64,000 nt of DNA from the sequence record OL780484.1; one strand, written 5' to 3'. The first letter of the stretch is position 1; the number at the start of each line of letters is the position of its first letter. Of this stretch, positions 2,852 through 57,533 are shown in pieces. The DNA is from Escherichia phage vB_EcoM-E33. A model generated the notes under the pieces. The model had not been told where the DNA came from, ran no database searches, and saw only the letters and a program-made list of their open reading frames with translations. The position numbers and the translations under genes were made by a program.

Positions 2852-4231
2852 ATGGCTGATGTAATTGATACCCTTTTTAAACAGGCTTTAGATGTTTACG
2901 ATGATTCTTTCACTCGTCGTGACTTAAAAAGTATTATCGACAACGAAGCATTGGCTTATGCAATGTATACTGTCGAAAACCGAGCCATTCCAAATATGAT
3001 TGATGGCTTTAAACCTGTACAACGTTTTGTAGTGGCTCGTTGTCTTGATATGGCTCGTGGTAATAAAGAAAAATTCCACAAACTGGCTTCTATCGCTGGT
3101 GGTGTAGCCGACCTCGGATATCACCACGGTGAAGGTTCTGCTCAGGAAGCAGGGGCTTTGATGGCTAACACATGGAACAACAACTATCCATTGTTAGACG
3201 GTCAAGGTAACTTCGGTTCTCGATTGGTTCAAAAGGCTGCAGCCTCTCGTTATATTTTTGCTCGTATCGGAAGTAACTTTGCAAAAGTTTATAAGGACAC
3301 AGAATATGCTCCGGTTCATGCGGATGTCGAACATAAGCCACCGGCTTTTTATCTGCCTATTATTCCTACTGTTCTTCTTAATGGCGTTTCCGGTATTGCA
3401 ACTGGTTATGCAACTAATATTCTTCCTCATAGTTTTGATTCTGTTAAGAAAGCTGTACTGCAAGTTCTTCAGGAAAAACGAGTAACCAAACCCAAAGTGG
3501 CTTATCCTGAATTCCGTGGTGAAGTTGTTGAGATTGAACCTGGTAGTTATGAGATTCGTGGAACGTATAAGTTCACATCTCGAACCCAAATGCATATCAC
3601 GGAAATCCCATACAAATACGACCGTGAAACATATGTGGCTAAGGTATTAGACCCTCTGGAAGACAAAGGGTATATCACATATGATGATGACTGTGACGAG
3701 AACGGTTTTGGCTTCAAGGTTAAGATTCGTAAAGAATACGAATTGCCTACTGATGAAAACAAGAAGCATGAAAAAATCATGAAGGACTTCGGGTTAATCG
3801 AACGTCGTTCACAAAACCTGACTGTCATTAATGAAAAAGGTAAACTTAAGGTTTACGAAGATGCAGTTGAACTGATTCGTGATTTCGTTGAGGTCCGTAA
3901 GACCTTTGTACAGAAACGTATTGATGGTAAAATCATCGAAACTGAAGAAGCTTTCAAACTGGCATTGGCTAAAGCCACATTTATCAAAGATGTTATTGAT
4001 GGTGTAGTGGTTATCCAAGGTAAGACCCGTAAGGTTTTAACCGAAGAATTGACCGGTAATAAAGTCTATGGCGAATATGCCGATAAACTAGTGGCCATGA
4101 ACATTTTCCATATCACTTCTGACGAAGCCAAGAAACTGGCCCTCGAAGCCAAGGCTAAGAAAGAAGAGCATCAATATTGGAAAACCACTGATGTTGTAAC
4201 TGAGTATGTTAAAGATTTGGAGGCTCTATGA
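2852..4231 (+). CDS. 52: DNA topoisomerase II medium subunit gp52
   Basis: 459 aa; long collinear similarity to remembered T4 gp52 (RDLKSIIDNEALAYAMYTVENRAIPNMIDGFKPVQRF). Confidence 0.9.
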   Translation: MADVIDTLFKQALDVYDDSFTRRDLKSIIDNEALAYAMYTVENRAIPNMIDGFKPVQRFVVARCLDMARGNKEKFHKLASIAGGVADLGYHHGEGSAQEAGALMANTWNNNYPLLDGQGNFGSRLVQKAAASRYIFARIGSNFAKVYKDTEYAPVHADVEHKPPAFYLPIIPTVLLNGVSGIATGYATNILPHSFDSVKKAVLQVLQEKRVTKPKVAYPEFRGEVVEIEPGSYEIRGTYKFTSRTQMHITEIPYKYDRETYVAKVLDPLEDKGYITYDDDCDENGFGFKVKIRKEYELPTDENKKHEKIMKDFGLIERRSQNLTVINEKGKLKVYEDAVELIRDFVEVRKTFVQKRIDGKIIETEEAFKLALAKATFIKDVIDGVVVIQGKTRKVLTEELTGNKVYGEYADKLVAMNIFHITSDEAKKLALEAKAKKEEHQYWKTTDVVTEYVKDLEAL

Positions 4232-4332
4232 GCCTTGGAGTCGAGTTCTTGTTACTCTGTATCTTTGCTGTTATCCTAGGCCTGGCGACAGGCTTAGCTA
4301 TAGGTTTAATAGCAGCCCACTTTAAAAAGTAA
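4228..4332 (+). CDS. hydrophobic micro-protein, 34 aa, overlapping the gp52 stop (ATGA)
   Basis: translation MSLGVEFLLLCIFAVILGLATGLAIGLIAAHFKK; directly followed by a terminator. Confidence 0.3.
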   Translation: MSLGVEFLLLCIFAVILGLATGLAIGLIAAHFKK

Positions 4333-4356
4333 GGAACCTTCGGGTTCCTTTTTTGG
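4332..4356 (+). terminator. intrinsic terminator, stem aggaacc/ggttcct with UUCG loop and T-run
   Basis: hairpin plus TTTTTT read from sequence. Confidence 0.6.
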
Positions 4357-4373
4357 GTTTAGTGCAAAAAAGT

Positions 4374-4403
4374 GTTTACATCTGCTTTAAACATGATACT
4401 ATA
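4374..4403 (+). promoter_or_regulatory. T4-type early promoter upstream of motA
   Basis: GTTTACA, spacer, GATACTATAG. Confidence 0.55.
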
Positions 4404-4440
4404 GACCTATCAAATAAATGAACTGAAACGGAGATACAAA

Positions 4441-5073
4441 ATGTCTAAAATTACTTATATCATCAAAGCTTCTGAAGACGTCCTGAATGAAAAAACTGCT
4501 TCGATCTTAGTACATATCATCAAGCATAACTTCATCACTTCAGGCGAAGTCCGTGAAGCCCTGAGTGAGCATTTTAGTGCTGCGGTAGTTAACTCTAACA
4601 TCGGTGTATTGATTAAGAAAGGATTCATCGAAAAATCTGGTGACGGTTTAGTGGCTACAGGTGAAGCAATGGACCTAGTTCAAAAAGCCGCCGACCTGTT
4701 CGCTTCTGAAAATGCTCCAGAGATGTTGGAAAAACGTAAAACACGTAGCTCACGTGGTGTTACTCCTGAAATGGTAACCATGGCCGATGAAGTTAAAGCT
4801 TTATTAGAAGATCGTATCGAGATTCGTGAAATTGCTGAAAACCGTAGCAACCTTGAAGTTCGATTCGCCAAACGTACCAATGGTATTCGTCAAATTGAAG
4901 TCCGTCGTGACGGAATGATGCGTATCTTCGGTTATAATATGACTGATAAAGAAAAACAAGTGTTTACTTCCTTGAATCTTGATGTTAAGATTAAGACTGG
5001 TGGTAAGAATACTTATATCGACTTCCAAAATGTATCATCTGAAGTTATCAAAACCGTAACCAACGCAATTTAA
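4441..5073 (+). CDS. motA: MotA middle-transcription activator
   Basis: 210 aa; N-terminus MSKITYIIKASEDVLNEKTASILVHI and NSNIGVLIKKGFIEKSGDGL match remembered T4 MotA. Confidence 0.9.
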   Translation: MSKITYIIKASEDVLNEKTASILVHIIKHNFITSGEVREALSEHFSAAVVNSNIGVLIKKGFIEKSGDGLVATGEAMDLVQKAADLFASENAPEMLEKRKTRSSRGVTPEMVTMADEVKALLEDRIEIREIAENRSNLEVRFAKRTNGIRQIEVRRDGMMRIFGYNMTDKEKQVFTSLNLDVKIKTGGKNTYIDFQNVSSEVIKTVTNAI

Positions 5074-8614: not shown

Positions 8615-11600
8615 TTATTTTAACAATGATTTAATTAATGCTTTAAGTTCTTCAATCTCTGATTTCAATTCTGCTATTTCTGCAGTGTGCTCATTGATTG
8701 CAGCTGTATTTAAACCAATTACACCGTTATAGTTCAAACGAAGTAAAGCTTCACCATCAGGGTCACCTTCAACTAATTCTGGTAAAATAGCTTGAACTTC
8801 TTGAGCTATCAAACCGGCGTTAGGTTCCCATTTCTGATTGCCTTCTTCATCTAGGCCTCGCTTCTGCATATAAGTGTAACCATTAATTTTAGAAAGTGTT
8901 TGTGAAGCATTTTCAAATTTAACGAGGTCTTTTTTAACGCGAATATCAGAACGGACATAAACATCACGGACAAACGTTGAATAGGCATCACCCTGTTGGA
9001 CTAAATGACCATGAGAAACAATTGCTTTACCGACTTCTGTCCAAAAAGCACCGGATGAATCCCATAACCCCTCATGTGCCAGACGTTGAGATCCCCATGA
9101 CGCAATATGAACACTATCGGCAAACATGTTAATACGGCCGTCACCGCCCCAGACTAAACCAGTATCATTATCACCAATAACAAGACACGGCCCGGGCCAT
9201 GCAGGGTCTCCACCACCAGCTGATAATCTTGCTCCAGTTTTAACCATATTAGGAACATACAGAACTCCATTGTGATGGAATTCATAGATAGCTTGTGGGT
9301 CTTGACCATTTTCCTGGTTACCTACACGAATAATACCTTGCGCCCAAGTATTAGTAATGCGTCGCATACCAAAATCTACACCCGATATGTATCCTTCGTT
9401 AGTAATACCAGATTTTCCTTTGATAATCGGGTAATAACTATCATTACCAACATTACCAAAATCTACAAACACCGGAGCTTCTTGTCGCCATTGATTACCC
9501 CAATCGCCAGCTTGGTGTGCAGCCCATTGTGAACCCTTTATATAAAGACGGTCCCTATTAAAATAAAAAGTATCCGCCCCTTGAGGAGCTAAACCAACTT
9601 CTCCACTATTATGAATATTAACGCCTGAATTAGTTTGGAAACTATAAAACGATAAGTTGTTATCAGCGCCGCCATTACCAACATACCAGTTATTAACGCC
9701 TGCTTTTTGTCCTTTCACATAACCAGATTCGGTTGCAGCACTGTTAATAACAATAGCATCCGAGTTTGCATTGATAGTTAAGCGGCCGGTCATCGTGTCG
9801 CCTTCTTTAGCCACACGGGAGGCAATAGCATCATGAATGTTAGTTATATCACCAGCAGAGGTAAATACGTTCCAAATGTTGGAGAAGATATTACCATTTC
9901 GAGCAATAGTAGCTTCACCGCCGCCAACCTGTACGTTATCCGGGAAATTAACTGTACCATCAGCATTAAATCTTGATGTATGACCTTGGGTCCCGTCTTC
10001 TTTGTAATGATGCAAAACAAAAGTCCCGGAATTAATTTCAGTACCTAAAGACCAAACAGCTTTTCCTTGTAAGAATTTCTGCTTAACAATAGGATAATAT
10101 TTACTTACCGCGTCATCATCAATTTCTTGGAAAACAGGAGCTGCTTGTGCATATTGAATATCGTAACCGCCTGCACCTGCACCATGTCCACCGAATTTAA
10201 TATAACCGTTTGCTGCAAAAAAAGCATAACTCAAATCTAGGTCAGGAATAACAACCTTACCGGTATCCAATGCCAAACTAAATGGACGAAGTGGTCCGAT
10301 ATCACCATTTTTACCTTCACCGTAAGCAGTTGGAATAATATGAAGACTTCCTTCTGAACGTCTAAAAATGGCACCGTAATCATTGTTCCAAATACGAAGA
10401 CCATTTACAGCATTTGTCGCGATTTCACCGGCTGCGCTGATTGTACCGTCAAATGTAGCATTTTTTACTACAGTCAAGTTTTCATTAACAATCTGGGTGC
10501 CATTTAGAACCGATTCGACTTTACCAGCAGTTGTTCGTTGAATATATTGCATCCAGCTAGTAGCATCAGATATTTCCATTACGTTTTTACGGTCGCCATC
10601 AACATTAGTAAAGGTATTACCCCAAACGCTGATAGTCATATTATCAACTGAACTACTTCCTGTAGTATTTCCTCTGAACATTAGTGTAGAAGCATTGTTG
10701 TGGCCATCAATATTAACCGAACCACCAACAACATCAATATTACCAGGAGTAACTAACAAACCACCAGCGGTGTTAACGTTTGTAGTACCCTTACCACGGA
10801 AATAGTGGTGATAATTGCCACCTTGATAATAACCTAAAAGAGTTTGACCGTCGCCATACGCGTTATTATCATGATAAGTGACAACCGTCGCCAAAGCATA
10901 GTTTTCCGACGGAGGAGTGGTTAAATCGGTACCGTTTACAGAATAACCCATAACCATTTTTCTAAGACTGGTGGTTTCTGCAGGGCCGTACAGGAAAGTT
11001 CTCGTGCCGTTATTAACGCTGAAATAATATCCATCCTGATGCCATTTTAACCCGGTGTCATTATCGCCAAGAGCAATTGAAGCCGTTCCTAATTCAGAAT
11101 ATCCTTTAGAGTTACCTGGGGTGCCTACAGAAATAGAATGGCCTGCTTTCAATCCACCGGACCAGGTAAATGACCAAAGATAAGCTTCTAAGCCGTCGCC
11201 GGCATACCAGGTTATTCCGTCATTATCTTTAACTTCATGGAAAATGCTCGAACTAACGGCATTTCGCATAACACGAAGGTGGTTAATAGCTGTTTCACTT
11301 TCTGCCAATGGGGTATTATCGGCCATTGAATAGATATCATAATCACCTTTAACCTTTTTATTAGTAATAACTTTATTGGTATAAATTACCGGAGTTGATA
11401 CAGATTTCCATCCAAAAACTTCAGGGGAAGAAAACACACCATTGCCTGAAAACGCGTAGGTGCTTTCGCCACTTGTCGCATAATCTTGTACGCGAATATT
11501 AACTACCTGAGTGGTCGCTCCAGCATTATTTGGCGAAAAGATAATGCCACGTTCGCGGGATGCGCCGTCAAAAAATCTCAAATGGGACGTCGATGCACTC

Positions 11601-11941
11601 TTAGAAATAAGCTCGCCACCTTCGGTCATTATCTGGCCAGCGGCAATAATGTCACGAGTTACACGAGCAATACCGGTTAAATTAAAATCACCTGTTTGGG
11701 TAAAGGTACCATTTAGGGTGTAATCGCCAGTCTGGTTGTAGTTACCGGTATGAATAACATTGCCGTCAATATTACCACCTTTAGCAAAGCCAAGGTCGAT
11801 AATCGCTCCAGTATCGTCTTTAGTAAAAAGTAAACGGTCCTTTAAGTTAATAGCCAGTTCGCCTTCAGCCAACTGGGCCGGTGCTGGACGTACACCGGCT
11901 ACTTTACTTCTTTTAAATTGGATTTGCTTTAAAGTAGCCAT
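8615..11941 (-). CDS. 37: gp37 long tail fiber distal subunit with C-terminal intramolecular chaperone-like domain
   Basis: 1108 aa; N-terminus [18 protein letters not shown]; C-terminus [15 protein letters not shown] followed by a coiled-coil tail. Confidence 0.9.
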
Positions 11942-18907: not shown

Positions 18908-18917
18908 GGTGAATATA

Positions 18918-19187
18918 ATGGCTAAAGAAAAAGTGAAAGTTGAATTCAATCAAGAAGAACATGGTAACACATTGGCACAACTGATTAAGTCTGCTTCCGA
19001 TACTAAATTAAAAATGGAAGCTTACGGTGACGAAATTAAAGATATCAAAGACCGTGCTAAGACTGAACTTGGTGTAGACGGTAAAATGTTTAACCAACTG
19101 TTCTCTCTGTACCATAAAGGCACCCGTGAACGTTTCGAAGACGAAAAAACTGAAGTGGTAGAACTGTATGACACAATCTTTGAATGA
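18918..19187 (+). CDS. dsbA: DsbA double-stranded DNA-binding protein (late transcription)
   Basis: about 89 aa from the ATG; similarity to remembered T4 DsbA (ELGVDGKMFN, VVELYDT-F). Confidence 0.75.
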   Translation: MAKEKVKVEFNQEEHGNTLAQLIKSASDTKLKMEAYGDEIKDIKDRAKTELGVDGKMFNQLFSLYHKGTRERFEDEKTEVVELYDTIFE

Positions 19188-19470
19188 TTTTGATGGAGCG
19201 GTTAATACCGCTTCCGAACCTGTCCATGTGCTCGTAAACAAACAACAGAATGGCCTTGATATTGAGGCCTTTGTTGAAGCTGAAGGTTGTAGTTACCTCG
19301 AAGCGGCTACCGCATGGTTGGAAGAGAACAGCATCCCTGAAGGTAACTTTGCTCGTTATTTGCCTGCAGGAATTATTGATAAAATTATGAACGAAGCCAT
19401 TGATGATAACTTGCTTCGACCTTCAATGGCTCGAACGCAAAAAACTAATACTCTGGATTTCTTGTTATGA
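19168..19470 (+). CDS. 33: gp33 late transcription co-activator
   Basis: 100 aa; synteny dsbA-33-59; size. Confidence 0.6.
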   Translation: MTQSLNDFDGAVNTASEPVHVLVNKQQNGLDIEAFVEAEGCSYLEAATAWLEENSIPEGNFARYLPAGIIDKIMNEAIDDNLLRPSMARTQKTNTLDFLL

Positions 19471-23966: not shown

Positions 23967-24260
23967 ATGAGAGTTTGCAGAGTTGTTAACAAGTATAAAG
24001 AAGACTTTGATGTCAATATCCAACGTGGAACTATGTGGGGTAATCCATTTAAAGATGGAACCCGCGAGGAAAACATCAAGAACTTTAAAGAATACTTTAT
24101 TGCTAAAATAAAATCGGGCGAAATTAAAAGAGAACATCTTGAAACCCTTAGAGGTATGCGTATAGCGTGTACCTGTAAACCTAAGGACTGTCATGGGGAT
24201 GTGATAGCCCTGGTTGTTAACAAACTTTTCAAAGACACGTTCTCATTAGAAGACCTATAA
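23967..24260 (+). CDS. hypothetical protein, 97 aa, with a C-x-C-x5-C-x-G motif
   Basis: ORF track. Confidence 0.5.
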   Translation: MRVCRVVNKYKEDFDVNIQRGTMWGNPFKDGTREENIKNFKEYFIAKIKSGEIKREHLETLRGMRIACTCKPKDCHGDVIALVVNKLFKDTFSLEDL

Positions 24261-24269
24261 ATATCAGTC

Positions 24270-24326: not shown

Positions 24327-26582
24327 ATGCAAGTACAAAAAAGTAGTGGTGTATCCCAAGATTTTGACGCACAAAAAATTATTAAAGTTCTGACTTGGGG
24401 CTGTGAAGGAACCCAAATCGACCCCTATGAATTATACGAAGAAATCAAATCCCATCTTCGTGACGGTATGACTACCAAAGATATCCAAAATCTGACTGTT
24501 AAGGTAGCAGCCAACCTTATCTCGGTTGAAGAGCCTGATTACCAATATGTTGCTGCAAAAGAATTGATGTTTGCACTGCGTAAAGAAGTTTATGGGCAGT
24601 TCGAACCACGTAGCTTTATCGACCATATTTCCTATTGTGTTAACGAAGGTAAATATGACCCTGAATTGTTGTCTCGATATTCTGCAGAAGAAATTACTTT
24701 CTTAGAATCTCATATAAAGCATGAACGCGATTTCGAATTGACTTATGCTGGTGCGATGCAGCTTAAAGAGAAATATCTGGTTAAAGATAAAACAACCGGT
24801 AAAATCTACGAAACCCCTCAGTTCGCTATCATGTGTATTGGTATGGCCTTACACCAAGACGAGCCGGGTAATCGTTTAGCACATATTATTCGTTTTTATG
24901 ATGCTGTAAGTACCCGTCAGGTTTCATTACCAACTCCTATTATGGCTGGAGCACGTACACCAACCCGTCAATTTAGTTCTTGTGTGGTTATTGAAGCAGG
25001 CGACTCACTGAAATCTATTAACAAAACTGCTAACTCAATAATTGAATACATTTCTAAACGTGCCGGTATTGGTATCAACGTTGGTATGATTCGTGCTGAA
25101 GGTTCTCGTATTGGCATGGGCGAAGTCAAGCATACCGGTGTTATTCCATTCTGGAAACATTTCCAGACTGCTGTTAAATCATGTTCACAAGGTGGAATCC
25201 GTGGCGGCGCTGCTACTGCTTATTATCCTATTTGGCATTTGGAAGTTGAAAATCTGCTCGTTCTGAAAAACAACAAGGGTGTCGATGAGAACCGTATTCG
25301 TCATATGGACTATGGAATCCAGTTGAACGACCTGATGATGGAACGTTTCGGTAAGAATGATTACATTACTCTGTTTAGTCCTCATGAAATGGGTGGTGAG
25401 CTTTACTATTCTTATTTCGAAGACCAAGACCGTTTCCGTGAATTGTATGAAGCCGCAGAAAAAGACCCTAGTATTCGTAAGAAACGTATTAAGGCACGTG
25501 ACCTCTTTGAATTGTTCATGACTGAACGTTCAGGCACTGCACGAATTTATCCTCAATTCGTTGATAACACTAACAACTTCACACCATTTATTCGTGAGAA
25601 AGCTCCTATTCGCCAGAGCAACTTGTGTTGTGAAATTGCTATCCCGACTACTGACGTGAATAGTCCTGACGCTGAAATTGGTTTGTGTACGTTGTCTGCA
25701 TTCGTATTGGATAACTTCGATTGGCAGGACCAAGACAAAATCAACGAGCTGGCTGAAGTACAAGTACGTGCACTTGATAACCTGTTGGACTATCAAGATT
25801 ATCCTGTTCCTGAAGCTCTGAAGGCTAAGAAACGTCGTAACCTGGGTGTTGGTGTTACGAACTACGCCGCTTGGTTAGCAAGCAACTTTGCTTCTTATGA
25901 AGACGCTAACGATTTAACTCATGAATTGTTTGAGAGATTACAATATGGACTTATCCGAGCATCCATCAAGCTGGCCGAAGAAAAAGGACATTGCGAGTAT
26001 TATTCAGACACTAAATGGTCTCGAGGCGAATTACCTATCGACTGGTACAATAAAAAGATTGACCAAATCGCAGCCCCTAACTATGTTTGTGACTGGACGT
26101 CGTTGCGGGAAGACTTGGCTAAACATGGCATCCGTAATAGCACATTATCAGCACTTATGCCGTGTGAATCAAGCAGCCAGGTTTCCAACTCTACAAACGG
26201 TATCGAACCTCCACGTGGTCCGGTAAGTATTAAAGAATCTAAAGAAGGTAACTTCCGTCAGGTAGTTCCTAATGTAGAACATAACCAAGGACTCTACGAT
26301 TACGCTTGGACCCTTGCTAAGAAAGGTAATAAACCTTATCTTACCCAAGTGGCAATAGCGTTGAAATGGGTGTGTCAATCAGCATCAGCGAATACATATT
26401 ACGACCCACAGATTTTCCCAAAAGGAAAAGTTCCGATGTCGGTAATGCTTGATGACCTGCTGTATTTCTGGTACTACGGCGGTAAGAACCTTTACTATCA
26501 TAACACCCGTGATGGCTCTGGTACTGATGACTACGAAATCGAAACTCCTAAAGCCGACGATTGTGCAGCTTGTAAGCTTTAA
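24327..26582 (+). CDS. nrdA: ribonucleotide reductase large subunit
   Basis: 751 aa; very high collinear similarity to remembered T4 NrdA. Confidence 0.95.
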   Translation: MQVQKSSGVSQDFDAQKIIKVLTWGCEGTQIDPYELYEEIKSHLRDGMTTKDIQNLTVKVAANLISVEEPDYQYVAAKELMFALRKEVYGQFEPRSFIDHISYCVNEGKYDPELLSRYSAEEITFLESHIKHERDFELTYAGAMQLKEKYLVKDKTTGKIYETPQFAIMCIGMALHQDEPGNRLAHIIRFYDAVSTRQVSLPTPIMAGARTPTRQFSSCVVIEAGDSLKSINKTANSIIEYISKRAGIGINVGMIRAEGSRIGMGEVKHTGVIPFWKHFQTAVKSCSQGGIRGGAATAYYPIWHLEVENLLVLKNNKGVDENRIRHMDYGIQLNDLMMERFGKNDYITLFSPHEMGGELYYSYFEDQDRFRELYEAAEKDPSIRKKRIKARDLFELFMTERSGTARIYPQFVDNTNNFTPFIREKAPIRQSNLCCEIAIPTTDVNSPDAEIGLCTLSAFVLDNFDWQDQDKINELAEVQVRALDNLLDYQDYPVPEALKAKKRRNLGVGVTNYAAWLASNFASYEDANDLTHELFERLQYGLIRASIKLAEEKGHCEYYSDTKWSRGELPIDWYNKKIDQIAAPNYVCDWTSLREDLAKHGIRNSTLSALMPCESSSQVSNSTNGIEPPRGPVSIKESKEGNFRQVVPNVEHNQGLYDYAWTLAKKGNKPYLTQVAIALKWVCQSASANTYYDPQIFPKGKVPMSVMLDDLLYFWYYGGKNLYYHNTRDGSGTDDYEIETPKADDCAACKL

Positions 26583-34959: not shown

Positions 34960-34967
34960 TATAAATA
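34960..34967 (+). promoter_or_regulatory. T4 late promoter TATAAATA immediately after the gene 31 stop; about 140 nt leader before rIII
   Basis: exact TATAAATA. Confidence 0.5.
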
Positions 34968-49053: not shown

Positions 49054-50790
49054 CTAATTAACTTTAGTAGCTTGACGCATACCAGGAGCAGGAGTAGAGG
49101 ACTGTGGAGGCATATTATAGCTTGTCTTACTCGTTTTCTTGATATTCGTTTGCTGATTTATTTGAGTTGGAGCTTGCTGACTATATTTAGCATTTTCCTT
49201 TGCTCTCATTTGCTCATCAACCTTTTTAACCTGGGTATTTTCAGGAGATTCCGCTACAGAAGCAGGTTTAGGCTTTTCAGCTTCATTAAATTTCTCTAAA
49301 GATTTATTCATCTTATCAAGTAATTGCTGGATATTAAGGTCTTTCGGTGCCCCACCTTTAGCCATAATAGGGTCGGCCAATTGTTTCTCGATATCAGCTT
49401 TAAATGCTTTAGCATTTTCGATATCTTTAGAATCTGGCTTCATTATATTATCAGCGGTTTGTGTCAAACGAATAATATCAGCCTGAGCTTTATCACGTTT
49501 CTTGAAATACTCTAAACGTTCTTCTTCAGGGAGGTCACGGAAGCTTGTGTCAATTCCACCTGCGCGTAATTGGTCGGCTTGTTCTTTAGTAAGATTACCG
49601 TATTTCTCTGCCTGGTTTATAAGCTCAGGTTTATCCTTATACTTCTTATTCATTTTCTCGGCTGTTTCTAAAGCCTCGGCAGAACGTCTATCATGGTACT
49701 TGGCCACTTTAGTTTGGTCTTCATCGTCTAAAGTGGCTCCGGTATTTTGCTGATATGACATTAAAGCAGAAGCCTCTACGTTTTCAGCTAAATCACCCAT
49801 ACCAGGTATTTTACTTAAAATAGCAGAAATCAACTTAGAAATACCAAGCATTAAAAGTTGTGCCATATTTTTGGTAAGATTAACCATACCACGAATAATA
49901 GCTTCAGCCAGACCTAACCAGTTTCCTTCACTAAACATGGCTTCAGCATTCTTGGCCCATGTCATTAGCCCTTCAAGTAATGGTCCCCACTCTTTAAACT
50001 TATCGTTAAATTCTTTCCACCCTGACTCAAATTGGTCCATGAAATATTGGAAGTATACGCGAATGGCATCTATACCAAATATTAAAAGGACTAAACCTGC
50101 TGCGAGTTTAGCAGCTTCAGCGGCAGCGGTAATGGTATACTTAAAAAGCATGCCTGAAATTCTATCAGCGACGCCTATAGAAGCTTTAAATCCCTTTTCA
50201 GTTATTTTAGTAAGGGCTTCGATTTTCTCGGAAAGAGAAGTCTTATCACCTTCTTTACCTTCATCTGAATTTTTAGGAGGCTCAGGCATAAATTCGGCGT
50301 CAGGTTTATTATCTTCAGGTGGAAGAATATCTTCAACAACAGCAGGAACTTTAGGAGTTTCGGCCTTAGGTTCTTCTGGAATAGAGTCTTCAATAACCTT
50401 TAATGAGCTCCCTTCCGGTGGAATAGAAATACCAGAAAATTTAGCCTCCAACATATTAGAAAGCTTATTAATCTTTTCGTTTAATGCATCCGAAAGAGCT
50501 TTAGACTGTTGGGTTTGTTCTGATATGGCTTCGGCCGTTAATTCTGTTCCAGCGACAACATCTTGGACGCTTTTGTCTACTCGGTCTACAGAATTAATAA
50601 TCTGGTTAGACTTTGTCTCAACAACTTCAGAGAGCAATTCAGACGCCGCCTGGGAATCGGATAAAACATCTGATATATTTCCTAATTCGTCGTTCTGAGT
50701 TTGGGCTAGCGCCTCAGCACGACGCTGAGGAGCCATTTCTTCAATCAGTTTATTGCGACGAAAACTATTCTGATTAGATTCGTTCTTCAT
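49054..50790 (-). CDS. 29: gp29 tail tube length determinant (tape measure) / baseplate hub
   Basis: 578 aa; synteny 51-27-28-29-48-54. Confidence 0.8.
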   Translation of the reverse strand: MKNESNQNSFRRNKLIEEMAPQRRAEALAQTQNDELGNISDVLSDSQAASELLSEVVETKSNQIINSVDRVDKSVQDVVAGTELTAEAISEQTQQSKALSDALNEKINKLSNMLEAKFSGISIPPEGSSLKVIEDSIPEEPKAETPKVPAVVEDILPPEDNKPDAEFMPEPPKNSDEGKEGDKTSLSEKIEALTKITEKGFKASIGVADRISGMLFKYTITAAAEAAKLAAGLVLLIFGIDAIRVYFQYFMDQFESGWKEFNDKFKEWGPLLEGLMTWAKNAEAMFSEGNWLGLAEAIIRGMVNLTKNMAQLLMLGISKLISAILSKIPGMGDLAENVEASALMSYQQNTGATLDDEDQTKVAKYHDRRSAEALETAEKMNKKYKDKPELINQAEKYGNLTKEQADQLRAGGIDTSFRDLPEEERLEYFKKRDKAQADIIRLTQTADNIMKPDSKDIENAKAFKADIEKQLADPIMAKGGAPKDLNIQQLLDKMNKSLEKFNEAEKPKPASVAESPENTQVKKVDEQMRAKENAKYSQQAPTQINQQTNIKKTSKTSYNMPPQSSTPAPGMRQATKVN

Positions 50791-51301
50791 TTAAGATATC
50801 CATGATTTTAAGCAATCCTTTGATAGGACCATTAGGACCAGGGATAGCTACAGTAGAAGTTATATCGTCGGCCCATGTAGCAACAAAGGCAGGCATATCC
50901 AGAAAATCTGGTACATCATCACCAAGATAAAGAGATTGTAGTACACTATCAACAGGACCAAATGTTTGAAATGGTTCGTGTGATTTAAATTTAAATGTCT
51001 TACCTTGGAACTGGAATTCAAGTCGTTGGCAAATATAAAGGTCATTTAAATTATATGTGAATCCATCTTTAGTTACTTTTTCTTTTAATCGTCCGTTGAA
51101 TTCTAAAAGGTGTAAAGCAGCAAAATCTGTTTCTGCTGCAGACAGTCCTTTACAAATGGATTCCATTGTCATATAGAGGGCCTTGTAAGGGTCCTTTTCA
51201 TCTTTAACCAATTTCTGGTGTTTAAGACCCAATTTAGGAATGGAAATCTCTTTGTCACCCAGCGTTATTTTCTTGATCGGGAGTATCAGTTTTAAGTTCA
51301 T
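50774..51301 (-). CDS. 28: gp28 baseplate hub distal subunit
   Basis: about 175 aa from the internal ATG ([17 protein letters not shown]); synteny. Confidence 0.7.
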
Positions 51302-52424
51302 TTTTAACCTTCGGCGGTTCTTCAATCTTAATAGGCTTACCATTAGTAAACATATAAAGGTTTGTAATTGATGTATTGTTACTCACTTCATGAATAACTT
51401 CGTCTACATAAAAATCGTACTGGAATTGGTTTTTAGGGTCATAGAAATTAATCTTATCGCCTGGAGTTAGTTCAAAGTTACCATATACCTTACAATGAGC
51501 GTATCCATCGTATTGGGCCATAGTAACTAATCTATCGGCTTCTTCAAAACCGTTTCGGTAGGTATAATCAGAATATCCACCGGAGCGAGAAACCAATATA
51601 CTGTTTTGCCCGTCACCAAAAGTAATTCGTGTGGCGTTTTTGTCTAAGAAAGAGTGGGCGTATACAGTAGCGTTTTCATATGGTTTTCTGGAATGTTGGT
51701 TGGCTTTAGTTAACCATTCAAAATCAAATGCGATAGGTGTATCCATATCTTGAACGTATTGACCTATTAATCGCGGCTCACCCACTACAAAATTAATAGG
51801 CTCTTGGTTAACCATAAATTCGTAGTCCATGATAGAAATACCATCTATATCTTCCCAGACAAATACAAATTTATCAGATTCAACGGCCATACCTACTTCT
51901 CGTACAAATTCCATATAACGGTCCATTGAATCACACCAAGGAACATTAGGAACGTAAACGTTTATCCCGTTCAAAGGAGGAGCAAGAAGCGGACGGTCTT
52001 GATAAATAACACCAATCATTTCAGTTAATGTTTCTTGAACACTCGGGAAGAACATACGACTAAATTTAAGATTCTCTAAAAAGTGGATTGGGGCGAGTTG
52101 TATTGTTATGATATTGTCGCCCTTCGAATCCACTCCTACAGCAAAGTGTTTACTTCCATAAATTCTTGATTGGGTACGTTCAGAGTTAGCATTCTTAACA
52201 GAAATTTGAATAATCTGCTCACCGTCCATTTTAGTATGAAGGTTCTTTGCATCATAAAACTGAAGCAACCCTTCATTACTACCGTAAAGCCCATCTCGCA
52301 TTGTTAGAGTAGTAAATGTCGCGCCTAGTTCAACAAAACGATGCTCTAACCAGGCGTCATAATCTTCGTAAAGGCGTATACTAATATTAGGAAAGCCTTC
52401 ACGTTGCATAGTTTTTGAACTCAT
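51255..52424 (-). CDS. 27: gp27 baseplate hub subunit
   Basis: 389 aa; size and synteny match T4 gp27. Confidence 0.8.
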
Positions 52425-53173
52425 TTCTTAAGGTCCTTTTCAACCAAAGACAAAGCAATACCGCGTTCGATTGGAATCATCTGCATAATGCTTTCTAATG
52501 AATAATTGTTCTTTACCAATAAATGGTTTATTTGGTAAAATAAAAATATCTCATCCGGATTGACTATAAGCTTAAACACCTCTAAAATATCGGTATACGT
52601 AATTGTTCTACGATTACAGCACCCATATTTGAGTTCGAAATGAATAGGGCTAGTTTGTTTAACTATATCCTCTAAAGTGGATAAGTCTATAGCATCTATT
52701 ACGGCTAATTGGTCTTCTTCAGAAAGGTCAGTCCAATTATATTTCCCGTTTTCATCTTCCACGGTTTGGAGGGTGTTCAGAATCAATTCGGATTTGTCTT
52801 GATATTCTATTTCTGGAAATTTGAATGTTAGCTTCAAGCCGGCCACTTCAATTGTGGGATTATCTAACTTGGTCTGTTTCAAATTGAATAAAACTTGTCT
52901 ATCCTTTTCACACTTACTACAAGTGTATCGGATAGGAATTTTGGTCTTGCCGAGTGATGACGTATAAAGTTCAATGAACATATATGGGCGCCATGACATA
53001 GGATATTCACCGAAGTATTCTTCCAGTAACTCATCTAAAATTTGTTTTTGCTCTTCAGGCGATTTATTATTCATGTCATTTCGAATCAAAATAAAATCAC
53101 GATAATCAGCTACTGTAAAAGGTTTAAATCGGTGGACTCCATCAGGCATTTCACAACGTACTATATTAGCCAT
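52421..53173 (-). CDS. 51: gp51 baseplate hub assembly catalyst
   Basis: 250 aa from the internal ATG preceded by GAGGA (MANIVRCEM); synteny. Confidence 0.7.
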
Positions 53174-53193
53174 AGGGTGTCCTCTTATTGATG

Positions 53194-53201
53194 TATTTAT
53201 A
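53194..53201 (-). promoter_or_regulatory. late promoter TATAAATA (minus strand) for the gp51-27-28-29-48-54 operon
   Basis: part of the palindrome TATTTATAAATA. Confidence 0.55.
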
Positions 53202-53205
53202 AATA
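53198..53205 (+). promoter_or_regulatory. late promoter TATAAATA (plus strand) for gp26-gp25
   Basis: exact TATAAATA 19 nt upstream of the gp26 ATG. Confidence 0.6.
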
Positions 53206-53223
53206 AGCTTAAAGGAGAAGACA

Positions 53224-53847
53224 ATGAATTATACTTTTGACGTAAAAATTAAAAACAAAACCATAAAATGCAGAGCATTTACCCTCAGAGAGTATAAGGA
53301 CTTGCTCCAAGCTAAATTAGAAGGCAGAATAGAGTCCTTTATCAATGAACTCATTTCGAATTGCACAGATGCTCGTGATTTAAACAAGCAAGAATCTGAG
53401 CTCCTGGTGATAAACCTGTGGGCCCATTCATTAGCTGAAGTGAATATAGAACGTGAGTGGAGTTGTAGTTGTGGCCGCTCACAGGTTGTCCCTATGACAC
53501 TAACTCGAGCAACATTGGGTAAAGAGCCGGATGTTATTAAAGACTTTGGCAACTTTAAAATTGTTTTCAGATATCCTAAACTCTTTGAAGATAAAAATAG
53601 AGCTATGATGGTCGCAGGGTGTATCGATTATATTTTAACTTCTGCAGGCGAAAAGCTTCTTCTTTCCGATTTAAGCGATGCGGAACTTGATGACCTTTAT
53701 TCTGTGATAACAGAAAAAGATATAAAAGAAGTTTATGATGCACTAGTCGCCCCTAAGCCTATTTTGGCTATACCTATTTCTTGTGAATGTGGTGAACACA
53801 CCGTCCACGTTATTGAGGGACTTAAAGAGTTCTTTAAGGTGATGTAA
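53224..53847 (+). CDS. 26: gp26 baseplate hub subunit
   Basis: 207 aa; synteny 51 / 26-25. Confidence 0.75.
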   Translation: MNYTFDVKIKNKTIKCRAFTLREYKDLLQAKLEGRIESFINELISNCTDARDLNKQESELLVINLWAHSLAEVNIEREWSCSCGRSQVVPMTLTRATLGKEPDVIKDFGNFKIVFRYPKLFEDKNRAMMVAGCIDYILTSAGEKLLLSDLSDAELDDLYSVITEKDIKEVYDALVAPKPILAIPISCECGEHTVHVIEGLKEFFKVM

Positions 53848-54236
53848 TGAATATCAATAAAATGTATTCAGATTTAGACCCTGAAATGAGGACGTCTTGG
53901 AATAGAGACGTCGCTAAAGCTACAGGTGCTCGCGCAGTAAAAAATAGTTTGTTAGGCATTATTACTACTCGCAAGGGTTCGCGCCCTTTTATGCCTGAAT
54001 TCGGTTGTGACATCAGCAACCAATTGTTTGAGAATATTACTCCATTAATCACAGACACCATTAAGCGTAATATAGTTTCCGCAGTGCGGAACTTCGAACC
54101 TAGAATTTCTGCTCTAGCTGTAGGTGTGACACCTGTGTACGATGATAACTCGATTATCGTGACCGTTCAGTTTAGTATCGTTGATGACCCAGATACATTA
54201 GAGCAAATTAGAATCCAGCTCTCGCAGAGTGGTTAA
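53847..54236 (+). CDS. 25: gp25 baseplate wedge protein
   Basis: 129 aa; similarity to remembered T4 gp25 (INK-YSD-DPEM, SLLGIITTRKGSRPF-PEFGCD-S-QLFEN-TPL, AVRN-EPRI). Confidence 0.9.
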   Translation: MNINKMYSDLDPEMRTSWNRDVAKATGARAVKNSLLGIITTRKGSRPFMPEFGCDISNQLFENITPLITDTIKRNIVSAVRNFEPRISALAVGVTPVYDDNSIIVTVQFSIVDDPDTLEQIRIQLSQSG

Positions 54237-54263
54237 TTGCTGTTCAAATGAATAGTGTATAAT
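54236..54263 (+). promoter_or_regulatory. middle-type promoter upstream of uvsY (TTGCTGTTCA, about 12 nt, TATAAT)
   Basis: motifs read from sequence. Confidence 0.45.
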
Positions 54264-54294
54264 GGTCCTATGGTTATTACACAGGAAACATGCG

Positions 54295-54729
54295 ATGAGT
54301 AAAGAGATTGAGTACAAGTTGGAGTCGTTTCAAGATGCTTTGGATGAAGATTTAAAGATTGATGGAACTCGTTTACAATATGAAGTACAGAACAACGTTT
54401 TGCTGCACAGCAAATGGCTAAGGCTGTATACGAATTGTAAGAAAGAAATAATGAGATTAGAAATCCAGAAAAAGACCTCACTTAAGAAGCGATTAGATTT
54501 CTACACGGGACGTGGAGAGCCTGGTGATGAGGTTTGTATGGACCAATATGAGAAATCTGAATTAAAGACCGTTATGGCTGCGGATTCTAGTGTAATTAAA
54601 ATCGACACATCAATTCAGTATTGGGCTTTATTACAAGACTTTTGTAGTTCAGCACTTGATGCTATTAAGGCGCGTGGTTTTAACCTTAAGACCATGCATG
54701 AGATGAGACAATTTGAGGCGGGCAAATGA
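54295..54729 (+). CDS. uvsY: UvsY recombination mediator
   Basis: 144 aa from MSKEIEY; similarity to remembered T4 UvsY (T-LQYE, MD-YEKSE-KTV, DTS-QYW-L-DFCS-ALDAIK-RGF, FEAGK). Confidence 0.85.
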   Translation: MSKEIEYKLESFQDALDEDLKIDGTRLQYEVQNNVLLHSKWLRLYTNCKKEIMRLEIQKKTSLKKRLDFYTGRGEPGDEVCMDQYEKSELKTVMAADSSVIKIDTSIQYWALLQDFCSSALDAIKARGFNLKTMHEMRQFEAGK

Positions 54730-54830
54730 GTTATCGTAAACCAGTCATCAATAAATGCCCTAAACCATCTAAAGAGCGGATGGACGAACTCCAAAAATTC
54801 ATTAATGCTGCTTTAGCAAGTAATAAATAG
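54726..54830 (+). CDS. small basic ORF, 34 aa (uvsY.-1 position)
   Basis: ATGA overlap with the uvsY stop. Confidence 0.25.
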   Translation: MSYRKPVINKCPKPSKERMDELQKFINAALASNK

Positions 54831-54858: not shown

Positions 54859-55026
54859 ATGTCAGATAAGATTTGCGTTGTCTGTAAAACTCCAATCGAT
54901 GCTGCATTGGTTGTTGAAACAGAAAAAGGTCCGGTTCATCCGGGCTCATGCTATAATTACGTTCAAAGCCTGCCTGTTACGGAAAACACTGAAGAACAGC
55001 TGAACGAAACCCAATTACTACTTTAG
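54859..55026 (+). CDS. small protein, 55 aa, with CxxC and GSC motifs (uvsY.-2 position)
   Basis: ATG after AAGGAGAC; followed by a terminator. Confidence 0.4.
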   Translation: MSDKICVVCKTPIDAALVVETEKGPVHPGSCYNYVQSLPVTENTEEQLNETQLLL

Positions 55027-55055: not shown

Positions 55056-55084
55056 GGCCCTTCCGAAAGGTTGGGCCTTTTTTG
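55056..55084 (+). terminator. intrinsic terminator (ggccc ... gggcc stem plus TTTTTT)
   Basis: hairpin plus T-run. Confidence 0.55.
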
Positions 55085-55085
55085 T

Positions 55086-55313
55086 TTAGAAATCTTCCTC
55101 TTCCTCGTCGTCCATCGACTCCAATTCAGCTCTCTTACCAGCCAATGCATCACGCACGCTAATATCGTCCGAATCACGAAGTTCAGCTTCCTTACTACGA
55201 GTTTTGTAATACTTCTCTAGTTCCTTCAGACCGTCCATAGTCTGACAAGAACCAATTTTAGCCATGAAGCTTTCAATAGATGCTTCTTGAATAACTTCTT
55301 TAAAGGTTTTCAT
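55086..55313 (-). CDS. uvsW.1: UvsW.1
   Basis: 75 aa acidic ORF overlapping the uvsW stop by ATGA. Confidence 0.7.
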   Translation of the reverse strand: MKTFKEVIQEASIESFMAKIGSCQTMDGLKELEKYYKTRSKEAELRDSDDISVRDALAGKRAELESMDDEEEEDF

Positions 55314-56806
55314 AAATCCACCTGTTTCATTACGTAATTAAATTTCTCATCAGCATAACGTTGAATACGTTCTAAAGCGTGTTTGAGGGCGTAGTTCAAA
55401 TGAACATATTTCTTTTTAGCCGTAGCTGATTTAGGCTTAACACCCATGTCGTCGATGATATCCCACACCTGTGCTGTTGATTTAGAGGCATGTTTACGGA
55501 GTACACGACCAATTGTCTGGAGTACAATGATTTTAGATTTTACTGGATGGGCAAATACAACGTGGTGAAGGTTCTTAACGGAAATACCAGTAGAGAACAC
55601 ACCATAACTTGCCACAACAATAATACCCTTACCATTTTCCGCCATTACTTTCAGAGCATTACGCGTTTCGGTATTAACTTCACCTGATACGTAATAAACT
55701 TCTTTATGTTGCTCTTTAACCATTTCAAAAAGAGTTTTACCGTGTTCGATGTTTTTAAACATCAGGAATACGTTCTCTTCTTTCTTAGCGAGTTTAACAG
55801 CTAAATTAGCAACCCATTTATTACGACGAGTAGCCTTAGTAATGACCTTGATTTCTGATTGGTAATCTTTACCTTTCATTTTAACCGTGAATTCGTCTGG
55901 GTATCGAAGGAAAATACTGTTGATTTTAAGGTCAGTAACCTGTCCTTCTTCCATTAACTGGGAGGTGGATACTGGCTTAAACACATCACCAAACAAACCC
56001 ATATATTGCATTAAATTAGCTTTACCATCTTTTAAAGAACCAGACAAACCGAATTTAAACATACAGTTGGTTAGGCCTTCGATGATAGTAGAAATAGATT
56101 TACCTGTAGCCAAATGGCATTCGTCGTTCATAAACATACCGAACTGAGCAAACCATTCTTTAGGTTGCTTGATAGCGGTTTGATAAGTTGAAACATAAAT
56201 CATTGCATCGGAATCACGAGCAGTACCTGAACGAATACCAAGCATTGCGGCTTTAGGGAACAGACGATAATCGATGAAGTCGTTAATCATCTGGTCGACA
56301 AGTGCAGTAGTAGGAACTAAGATGAGGATTTTACCTTCATAGTTCTCAACGTAATATCGACTCAGGAGCGCCTGGATTAATGATTTACCTGCGGATGTAG
56401 GTAAATTCAGAATTGCACGACGTTTTGTCAGGCCGTTGTATACGGCTTCATTCTGATACCAATGAGGCTCAATCTTGGTAGACCCTGAATAAATTTCTTG
56501 AGAAGCTACCCATGAATCAAAATCTTCACGAGAAATATCTTCCTGTTCAAGAATACGTGGGTCAATCCACAGAGAGTATTCAAATTGTTCAGCGAACTTT
56601 TTAATTTGAGGGACCAATCCATAAGGAAGTTTACGGTTGTAATCCAGAAGGCGAATACGTCCGTCCCATTGGCCATAACGAAATTTAGGGTTGAATTTAT
56701 ATCCATCAGCTTCAAAGCTAAAATAGTCTCTGAGTTCGTAGAATGTAGATTCATCGCATTCAATACGGACATGACTAAAATTATCAAAATGTACTTGAAT
56801 TTGCAT
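55310..56806 (-). CDS. uvsW: UvsW SF2 DNA helicase
   Basis: 498 aa; Walker A-like LNLPTSAGKS; helicase motifs; synteny. Confidence 0.85.
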   Translation of the reverse strand: MQIQVHFDNFSHVRIECDESTFYELRDYFSFEADGYKFNPKFRYGQWDGRIRLLDYNRKLPYGLVPQIKKFAEQFEYSLWIDPRILEQEDISREDFDSWVASQEIYSGSTKIEPHWYQNEAVYNGLTKRRAILNLPTSAGKSLIQALLSRYYVENYEGKILILVPTTALVDQMINDFIDYRLFPKAAMLGIRSGTARDSDAMIYVSTYQTAIKQPKEWFAQFGMFMNDECHLATGKSISTIIEGLTNCMFKFGLSGSLKDGKANLMQYMGLFGDVFKPVSTSQLMEEGQVTDLKINSIFLRYPDEFTVKMKGKDYQSEIKVITKATRRNKWVANLAVKLAKKEENVFLMFKNIEHGKTLFEMVKEQHKEVYYVSGEVNTETRNALKVMAENGKGIIVVASYGVFSTGISVKNLHHVVFAHPVKSKIIVLQTIGRVLRKHASKSTAQVWDIIDDMGVKPKSATAKKKYVHLNYALKHALERIQRYADEKFNYVMKQVDL

Positions 56807-56819
56807 AAGTAATTCTCAG

Positions 56820-56827
56820 TTATAAAT
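56820..56827 (+). promoter_or_regulatory. late promoter TATAAATA for inh-hoc
   Basis: exact motif about 34 nt upstream of the inh ATG. Confidence 0.55.
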
Positions 56828-56833
56828 ATAGTT

Positions 56834-56841
56834 ATATTTAT
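56834..56841 (-). promoter_or_regulatory. late promoter TATAAATA (minus strand) for uvsW, divergent from the inh promoter
   Basis: plus-strand TATTTATA about 27 nt upstream of the uvsW ATG. Confidence 0.5.
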
Positions 56842-56861
56842 ACACCAACAAGAGACTAATT

Positions 56862-57533
56862 ATGGATACTCAATATATTGAAGAGCTTCGTGCACTCGAA
56901 GATAAAAAAGAAGCTAAAGCTAAGTTAATCGAATACGGCGAACAGTTTGGTTTAAAACTTAAGAAAACCCGTTCGTTTGATAATTTGATTATCGATATCT
57001 CTGAAGGCCTTAAAGCCTTGGCTGACGAACCACTTCCGGAAACCGAAGGGTTGTCCATTTCTGATTTGATTGATGCTGCTGATGAACTCACTGGTGATAA
57101 AGATTTTATCGAAGGTGTAGAACCAGCTAAAGAAGAAGCAACCCTGTTGTTCGATGCCCCTGAGGCTGCAGTAGAAGTCGTTGAGGTAGCCGAACTTCCT
57201 AAGGTAGAGATTATCGAAGAGGATGTTCCATTTGACGAAGAGAAATTCAAAGGGGCTATAGCCAAGGTTGTTGAATCTGAAAAACCTGTATTCTCTTTAC
57301 CTGAAAACTTCAGTCCTAATCTTTTGCTTATCGGTAAGAACCCAGGTTATTGCACCGTTCCTTGGTGGATTTACCAATGGATTTCTGAGACTCCGGATTG
57401 GAAAGAACGTCCAACTGCTTTCCAACATCCTTCTGCCCACCAAACATTATTTAGTCTGATTTATTACATTAATCGTAATGGTTCAGTATTAGTACGTGAA
57501 ACTCGTAACTCATCTTTTGTCACTTTAAAATAA
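56862..57533 (+). CDS. inh: Inh-like protein (inhibitor of prohead protease), by position and size
   Basis: 223 aa; synteny uvsW-inh-hoc. Confidence 0.5.
   Translation: MDTQYIEELRALEDKKEAKAKLIEYGEQFGLKLKKTRSFDNLIIDISEGLKALADEPLPETEGLSISDLIDAADELTGDKDFIEGVEPAKEEATLLFDAPEAAVEVVEVAELPKVEIIEEDVPFDEEKFKGAIAKVVESEKPVFSLPENFSPNLLLIGKNPGYCTVPWWIYQWISETPDWKERPTAFQHPSAHQTLFSLIYYINRNGSVLVRETRNSSFVTLK

Follow-up and report, generated by a model that had tools for sequence, protein, structure and literature searches.

A conserved 12-bp palindrome between genes 51 and 26 of Escherichia phage vB_EcoM-E33 as a very probable pair of overlapping, divergent T4-type late promoters

Overlapping late promoters driving divergent transcription of the baseplate cluster of phage T4 were reportedly mapped by Scarlato et al. 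in 1989 (Virology 171:475). The T4 transcripts are reported to be mapped, while the starts given below for vB_EcoM-E33 are predicted. Among the papers covered by a literature search on T4 late promoters and transcript starts, none describes the promoters between genes 51 and 26. No promoter features are annotated at this junction in the T4 records NC_000866 and AF158101 and, because of this, the T4 annotation could not be used as evidence. A published prediction was found for phage RB69, where Additional file 5 of Nolan et al. (2006; PMC1524935) lists Pl:118620 on the plus strand (118620-118662) and Pl:118672 on the minus strand (118630-118672). Both predicted intervals extend across the 26/51 gap of RB69 (118623-118669) and include, at 118641-118652, the same 12-bp palindrome as the locus described here. 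The RB69 gap measures 47 bp, compared with 50 bp in vB_EcoM-E33, and both members of the pair are purely computational predictions.

The late promoters of T4 consist of an 8-bp box without a -35 element and are used by gp55 on the host core polymerase, together with the co-activator gp33 and the gp45 clamp docked upstream (PMC2988020). The box occupies positions -13 to -6 (Nolan et al. 2006, PMC1524935), and its limited variation is found mainly at -13 (PMC1524935, PMC2988020). The co-activator gp33 cross-links at -39 and at -36/-35, and the footprint of the activated complex is 13 bp longer on the upstream side (PMC2988020). Activation of T4 late transcription is polar, in that it requires a nick in the non-transcribed strand and depends on the orientation of the gp45 clamp (PMC2988020).

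The window analyzed here is a stretch of 64,000 nucleotides of vB_EcoM-E33 (OL780484.1). It derives from a Dhakavirus, a T4 relative of the JS98/IME08 type; IME08 is itself classed in Dhakavirus, a T4-like genus of the Straboviridae. Over the region 52400-54300, sequence identity was 99.8% with Shigella phage PSD9 and 97-99% with WG01, QL01, Bp7 and IME08. The window is oriented opposite to the T4 record. Its local gene order, 54-48-29-28-27-51 / 26-25-uvsY, was assigned from the annotation of IME08 (24, rnlB, hoc, inh, uvsW, uvsY.-2, uvsY, 25, 26, 51, 27, 28, 29, 48, 54, alt) and is the same as in T4.

A 12-bp palindrome, TATTTATAAATA, occupies exactly 53194-53205, midway along the 50-bp gap that separates gp51 (ATG 53173, minus strand) from gp26 (ATG 53224, plus strand). 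On each strand it holds a perfect match to the T4-type late promoter box TATAAATA, and two opposed late boxes are thereby present inside the 51/26 gap. The putative P51 box, directed towards gp51, occupies 53194-53201 on the minus strand (reading from 53201 to 53194), with 53194-53197 as its private bases. The putative P26 box, directed towards gp26, occupies 53198-53205 on the plus strand, with 53202-53205 as its private bases. The two boxes are offset by 4 nt and have the central TATA at 53198-53201 in common. A first-pass annotation of this DNA had described a 12-nt palindrome with the box on both strands and a 4-nt offset, and the sequence reads precisely so. In the window the exact 12-mer occurred once, compared with 0.01 copies expected from dinucleotide-preserving shuffles. 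When one mismatch was allowed, 0.9 copies were already expected, and the weight therefore rests on the exactness and the position of the 12-mer. A back-to-back overlap through the self-complementary TATA is the tightest outward-facing layout in which both boxes remain perfect, and a pair of promoters with their short leaders and ribosome-binding sites fits into about 50 bp. Treated as single-stranded DNA, the 50-nt gap folded no better than its shuffles (z = -0.10), and a hairpin or cruciform role of the palindrome was dropped on this basis.

The first gene to the left encodes the baseplate hub assembly protein gp51 (52421..53173, minus strand), which is followed on the same strand by the ORFs of gp27 (51255-52424) and gp28 (50774-51343) and then, by synteny, by 29, 48 and 54. 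To the right, the ORFs and the annotation of relatives indicate the baseplate hub subunit gp26 (53224..53847, plus strand) and, as second gene, the baseplate wedge subunit gp25 (53847..54236, plus strand). Each box has a late-gene orthologue downstream in its own orientation, these being the baseplate genes gp51 and gp26. The boxes had been proposed to face gp51-27-28-29-48-54 on the minus strand and gp26-gp25 on the plus strand, which agrees with both their placement and the IME08-like gene order. With the box at -13 to -6 (PMC1524935), the gp51 transcript is predicted to start with an A at 53188 (minus strand) and to have a 15-nt leader, AUAAGAGGACACCCU, and the gp26 transcript is predicted to start with an A at 53211 (plus strand) and to have a 13-nt leader, AAAGGAGAAGACA. 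The two predicted starts are 23 bp apart and each lies just ahead of a ribosome-binding site, for which the Shine-Dalgarno sequences GAGGA (53180..53184, minus strand, gp51) and AAGGAG (53212..53217, plus strand, gp26) were read from the sequence.

The gp51 protein of the window aligned with T4 gp51 from residue 1 (MANIVRC versus MANIIRC), with 51% identity overall, and its start was therefore placed at ATG 53173 (250 aa). The TTG at 53224, which opens the longest gp51 ORF (267 aa), was rejected because the alignment with T4 gp51 favours ATG 53173. In the IME08 record (HM071924, extract 10428-11854), genes 26 and 51 are annotated with starts too far upstream, and the two CDSs consequently overlap across the palindrome. 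The palindrome helps to settle the true start codons of genes 51 and 26.

The box TATAAATA was detected at nine sites in the window, compared with 6.4 expected from shuffles. This is no over-representation and fits a window of mostly early genes. Since the raw count was non-significant, a test of placement was used in its place. At seven of the nine sites, 13-28 nt separate the predicted start from the ATG of a long ORF downstream, and each of these ORFs has a T4 late gene as its orthologue (t, 34, 51, 26, uvsW, inh and 24). The holin t, gp34 and the vertex protein gp24 were identified in the window, while gp51, gp26, uvsW and inh were taken from the IME08 annotation. Such placement was found for only 4% of 455 sites of composition-matched 8-mers (5 A + 3 T), corresponding to a binomial P of 5e-9. 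By its placement, TATAAATA marks late genes in the window in a strongly non-random manner.

The two other sites are both on the plus strand, and neither adjoins a gene start. One (24256-24263) lies at the 3' end of a plus-strand ORF, 58 nt before a 751-aa ORF (24327-26582), and the other (34960-34967) at the 3' end of a plus-strand ORF, 133 nt before an 82-aa ORF. These could be chance sites or long-leader late promoters within the early-gene region. The common A(-13) late variant, AATAAATA, was present at 54822-54829 (plus strand), with a predicted start 24 nt before a uvsY.-2-like ORF (54859-55026). A terminator-like hairpin, GGCCC-ttccgaaaggtt-GGGCC followed by TTTTTT, is located at about 55058-55085 (plus strand) between the converging uvsY.-2 and uvsW.1 ORFs. 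It was not picked up by a simple terminator scan and is probably where the rightward 26-25-uvsY transcription unit ends. A scan for sigma-70 promoters revealed no early-type promoter inside either the 51/26 or the uvsW/inh gap, and the number of sites in the region was that expected by chance.

Comparison with the T4 51/26 junction had been suggested earlier as a check. T4 carries the identical 12-mer in its own 50-bp gap (reading ...ttattcTATTTATAAATAtgataaataaaggag...), between the same flanking genes, even though the two gp51 proteins share only 51% identity, and in both phages the two leaders are short and contain a Shine-Dalgarno sequence. The flanks differ. The palindrome of the window lies 3 bp nearer gp26, with leaders of 15 nt (gp51) and 13 nt (gp26) compared with 12 and 16 nt in T4, and T4 has an extra GATAAATA beside the palindrome.

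The comparison was extended to gap sequences from phages of other genera, from RB69 and from 36 IMG/VR loci found by gp26 alignment. This sample was collected via gp26 similarity and consists mostly of Tevenvirinae, with KVP40 and the cyanophages left out. The 12-mer was found in T4, RB69 and 13 further distinct gap sequences, representing at least 10 genera. It was exact in nine of the 14 junctions listed and in 35 of the 36 IMG/VR loci. The genera with the exact 12-mer were Dhakavirus, Tequatrovirus, Mosigvirus, Gaprivervirus, Winklervirus, Gelderlandvirus, Jiaodavirus, Tegunavirus and Lazarusvirus, and the carriers include T4, Aplg8 and the unclassified SonariX. When the 15 distinct gap sequences were anchored on the core, all 12 core positions were invariant, while the commonest base in the flanks averaged 57%. 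No conserved -35 element was present in these flanks, the -35 position of each box falling in the leader of the other. The best-kept flank position was the sixth base to either side of the core (right, A in 86%; left, T in 93% of the 15 lineages). These two bases coincide exactly with the predicted +1 positions 53211 and 53188, the plus-strand T at 53188 being an A in the gp51 RNA. Across the lineages the gp51 leader measured 10 to 19 nt and the gp26 leader 11 to 28 nt. Since the leaders vary in length, the two-box unit shifts its position in the gap without changing in sequence.

The perfect boxes, the leaders of 13 and 15 nt, the identical 12-mer of T4 and the invariance in 15 gap sequences together support the first-pass reading of this locus as a divergent late-promoter pair. 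We consider it very likely that the palindrome represents two back-to-back, overlapping and outward-facing late promoters of the T4 type. From orthology and conservation we infer that both boxes would function in vB_EcoM-E33.

Some lineages have other layouts at the same junction. Morganella phage MP1 (extract 1158-1203) carries TATAAATATTTATA, in which the same boxes stand in reverse order with an overlap of 2. The Krischvirus GEC-3S (extract 1131-1200) has an exact box towards gp51, TATTTATA; to the right, after a few bases, comes a plus-strand CTAAATA, the core reported for the late promoters of Aeh1 (PMC1524935). In the Tulanevirus Aes508 (extract 1153-1200), TTATTTAAATA was found at the 51/26 junction. 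Lineages without the 12-mer retain two opposed boxes, which argues that the promoters are conserved, rather than the palindrome or a single operator sequence. Selection thus maintains two opposed late boxes rather than one operator.

It might be argued that only one of the boxes works, and that the other arises as a side effect of TATAAATA being partly self-complementary, its gene being transcribed from elsewhere. Half of each box (TATA) does come free with the other box, and not all of the listed T4 consensus sites for late promoters have been proven active in vivo (PMC2988020). However, the private bases of both boxes (53194-53197 and 53202-53205) do not vary among 15 lineages whose flanks do, and no other late box or sigma-70-like site that could serve gp51 or gp26 was present in the 50-bp gap. 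Upstream beyond the gap there is only oppositely oriented coding sequence. In MP1 and Krischvirus a pair of boxes has been rebuilt with another arrangement, and in RB69 both directions were predicted (PMC1524935). A single working box is in our opinion improbable.

The two consensus boxes explain the 12-mer fully, and they make it unnecessary to assume that the palindrome owes its conservation chiefly to DNA binding by a dimeric regulator of the baseplate genes, such as DsbA. A perfect 12-bp palindrome is what a classic dimer operator looks like, the window encodes DsbA (18909-19187, plus strand), and this protein was reported on A/T-rich sites overlapping two late promoters (PMC2988020). Nevertheless, the affinity of DsbA is micromolar, its gene is non-essential, and it had no effect on late transcription in vitro (PMC2988020). 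MP1 retains the boxes but alters the palindrome, Krischvirus separates the boxes, and the gap showed no unusual single-strand folding at the z of -0.10 given above. This explanation is even less probable than that of a single working box. The probability of a chance A/T-rich palindrome in an A/T-rich intergenic spacer is negligible: although TATAAATA is not more frequent than in the shuffles (9 versus 6.4) and the 12-mer with one mismatch is expected 0.9 times, the exact 12-mer is expected only 0.01 times, and invariance at the same junction in at least 10 genera refutes this explanation.

The pair of overlapping late promoters at 51/26 has a counterpart elsewhere in the window, between uvsW (55310-56806, minus strand) and inh (56862-57533, plus strand), both assigned from the IME08 annotation. 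This unit, TATAAATA-tagtta-TATTTATA, occupies 56821..56842 and has one box on each strand. The first-pass annotation had recorded a non-overlapping pair between inh and uvsW at 56820-56841. The pair exists, with coordinates that were one base off, and the label applies to the boxes but not to the promoters, since each predicted start adjoins the box of the other. The inh-facing plus-strand box (56821-56828; predicted start 56834) lies nearer uvsW and the uvsW-facing minus-strand box (56842-56835; predicted start 56829) lies nearer inh, so that the two promoters face each other. Judged from the predicted starts, the uvsW/inh pair is not independent, and its promoters overlap even more than those of the 51/26 pair. 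With starts at 56834 (plus) and 56829 (minus), the first 6 nt of the predicted transcripts are complementary. The predicted uvsW and inh mRNAs would both begin with A-UAUUUAUA.

The 22-bp pattern WATAAATA-N6-TATTTATW was found once in the window, with 0 expected. The unit TATAAATA-N6-TATTTATA with the same 6-nt spacer was also present in CHI14, STP4-a and a Jiaodavirus. T4, VR7 and RB69 have the unit with the same 6-nt spacer but with AATAAATA, the common A(-13) variant. In T4 (segE; extract 4009-4675) and in Salmonella phage STP4-a (extract 10464-11148), a homing endonuclease gene is located between the late-promoter unit and uvsW. Because they are inserted at this point, both endonuclease genes sit downstream of the uvsW-facing box. 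A further ORF insertion in STP4-a breaks the annotated uvsW helicase into three CDSs.

The gene for the late-transcription co-activator gp33 was identified in the window at 19168..19470 on the plus strand (PF16805, E = 1e-25; PF11126, E = 1.4e-25), and genes 55 and 45 would, judging by the T4 gene order, presumably fall outside it. The dsbA gene (18909-19187) is located just upstream of gene 33 and overlaps its start (19168-19470). The overlap of dsbA and gene 33 is conserved and was flagged as unexplained in the review by Geiduschek and Kassavetis (PMC2988020).

In the proposed mechanism, the minus-strand TATAAATA would steer the host RNA polymerase with gp55 and gp33 to start near 53188 and to transcribe 51-27-28-29-48-54. 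The plus-strand TATAAATA would steer the late polymerase to start near 53211 and to transcribe 26-25. Position -39 of P26 corresponds to 53172, inside the gp51 start codon, and position -39 of P51 corresponds to 53227, in the second codon of gp26. An activated complex, reaching to about -39 and carrying the gp45 clamp in addition, would cover the other promoter, its start and its whole leader. Since one complex would cover the other promoter, simultaneous occupancy would be sterically excluded, and each DNA molecule would be transcribed in one direction at a time. Competition between the two directions, as the first-pass annotation had proposed, would thus be sterically reasonable. Such mutual exclusion need not have a regulatory effect.

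As T4 late activation depends on clamp orientation, it may be the clamp, rather than simple competition, that sets the direction at the divergent pair, if the in vitro polarity rules can be extrapolated to this locus. From the polarity, clamps loaded at plus-strand 3' ends would activate P26, and those loaded at minus-strand 3' ends would activate P51. That the opposed late boxes read the orientation of the clamp instead of simply competing is a tentative suggestion that we hold to be rather doubtful. If it were true, passage of the fork would be followed by firing of P26 (26-25) on the daughter formed by leading-strand synthesis and of P51 (51-27-28-29-48-54) on the lagging-strand daughter, and inh and uvsW would be divided likewise. 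Two boxes within one footprint would then guarantee a usable promoter for either clamp orientation, and the relative output of the two baseplate units would follow the proportion of clamps in each orientation. In that case, this function, and not genome compaction alone, would account for the layout being invariant across genera. Compact opposed pairs would be convenient natural substrates for asking whether the orientation of the gp45 clamp sets the direction of late transcription.

Among the related arrangements, the uvsW/inh unit resembles the 51/26 pair in having opposed boxes within one polymerase footprint and divergent late genes. Its boxes face each other and its predicted transcripts overlap by 6 nt, whereas the 51/26 boxes face outward. 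A similar pair is present in Aeromonas phage Aeh1, in the gap between gene 4 and the tail tube cap gene (extract 987-1038). This gap contains TATTTAGCTAAATA, two abutting opposed copies of CTAAATA, which coincides with overlapping plus- and minus-strand predictions of Nolan et al. Here again opposed boxes within one polymerase footprint stand between divergent late genes, but the Aeh1 boxes abut without common bases and follow the Aeh1 consensus CTAAATA, whereas those at 51/26 have TATA in common. The Aeh1 pair indicates that opposed late boxes are general in T4-like phages and not specific to the 51/26 junction. It was rejected as an instance of the 51/26 junction itself because of its location between gene 4 and the tail-tube-cap gene. 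The overlapping RB43 pair of Nolan et al. was likewise rejected as the same junction, as it is located upstream of gene 34, without a divergent partner gene.

A more distant parallel is offered by the bidirectional sigma-70 promoters of E. coli, which arise from the symmetry of the -10 element (Warman et al. 2021; Warman et al. 2026, PMC12825309). Like the 51/26 pair, they rely on a short, pseudo-symmetric -10-type sequence that can be used both ways, with binding in one direction excluding the other. Divergent starts 10, 18 or 23 bp apart are preferred among them (PMC12825309), and the 23-bp class, a common one, has the spacing predicted here, although the starts at 51/26 are predicted and the sigma factor is gp55. 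The basal activity of the E. coli promoters is too low for interference, and repression was seen only when the other direction was strongly activated (PMC12825309). The 51/26 pair differs from them in its use of gp55, an 8-bp box, no -35 element and an orientation-specific sliding clamp, whereas sigma-70 promoters use site-bound activators. Both directions at 51/26 serve essential structural operons, whereas sigma-70 bidirectional promoters have been described as a general by-product of -10 symmetry.

The divergent late-promoter pair at 51/26 is already known, since it is orthologous to the known T4 element and has been predicted in RB69, and in this sense it is ordinary. As a discovery it carries little weight, being a well-studied regulatory feature of T4 that was confirmed unchanged in a Dhakavirus. 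Mildly new are the invariant core, the rearranged layouts, the conserved face-to-face unit and the idea of clamp orientation. The comparison with the other T4-like phages adds, in a modest way, that the 12-mer has stayed invariant in at least 10 genera amid drift, that alternative layouts exist, and that the face-to-face unit between uvsW and inh is equally conserved.
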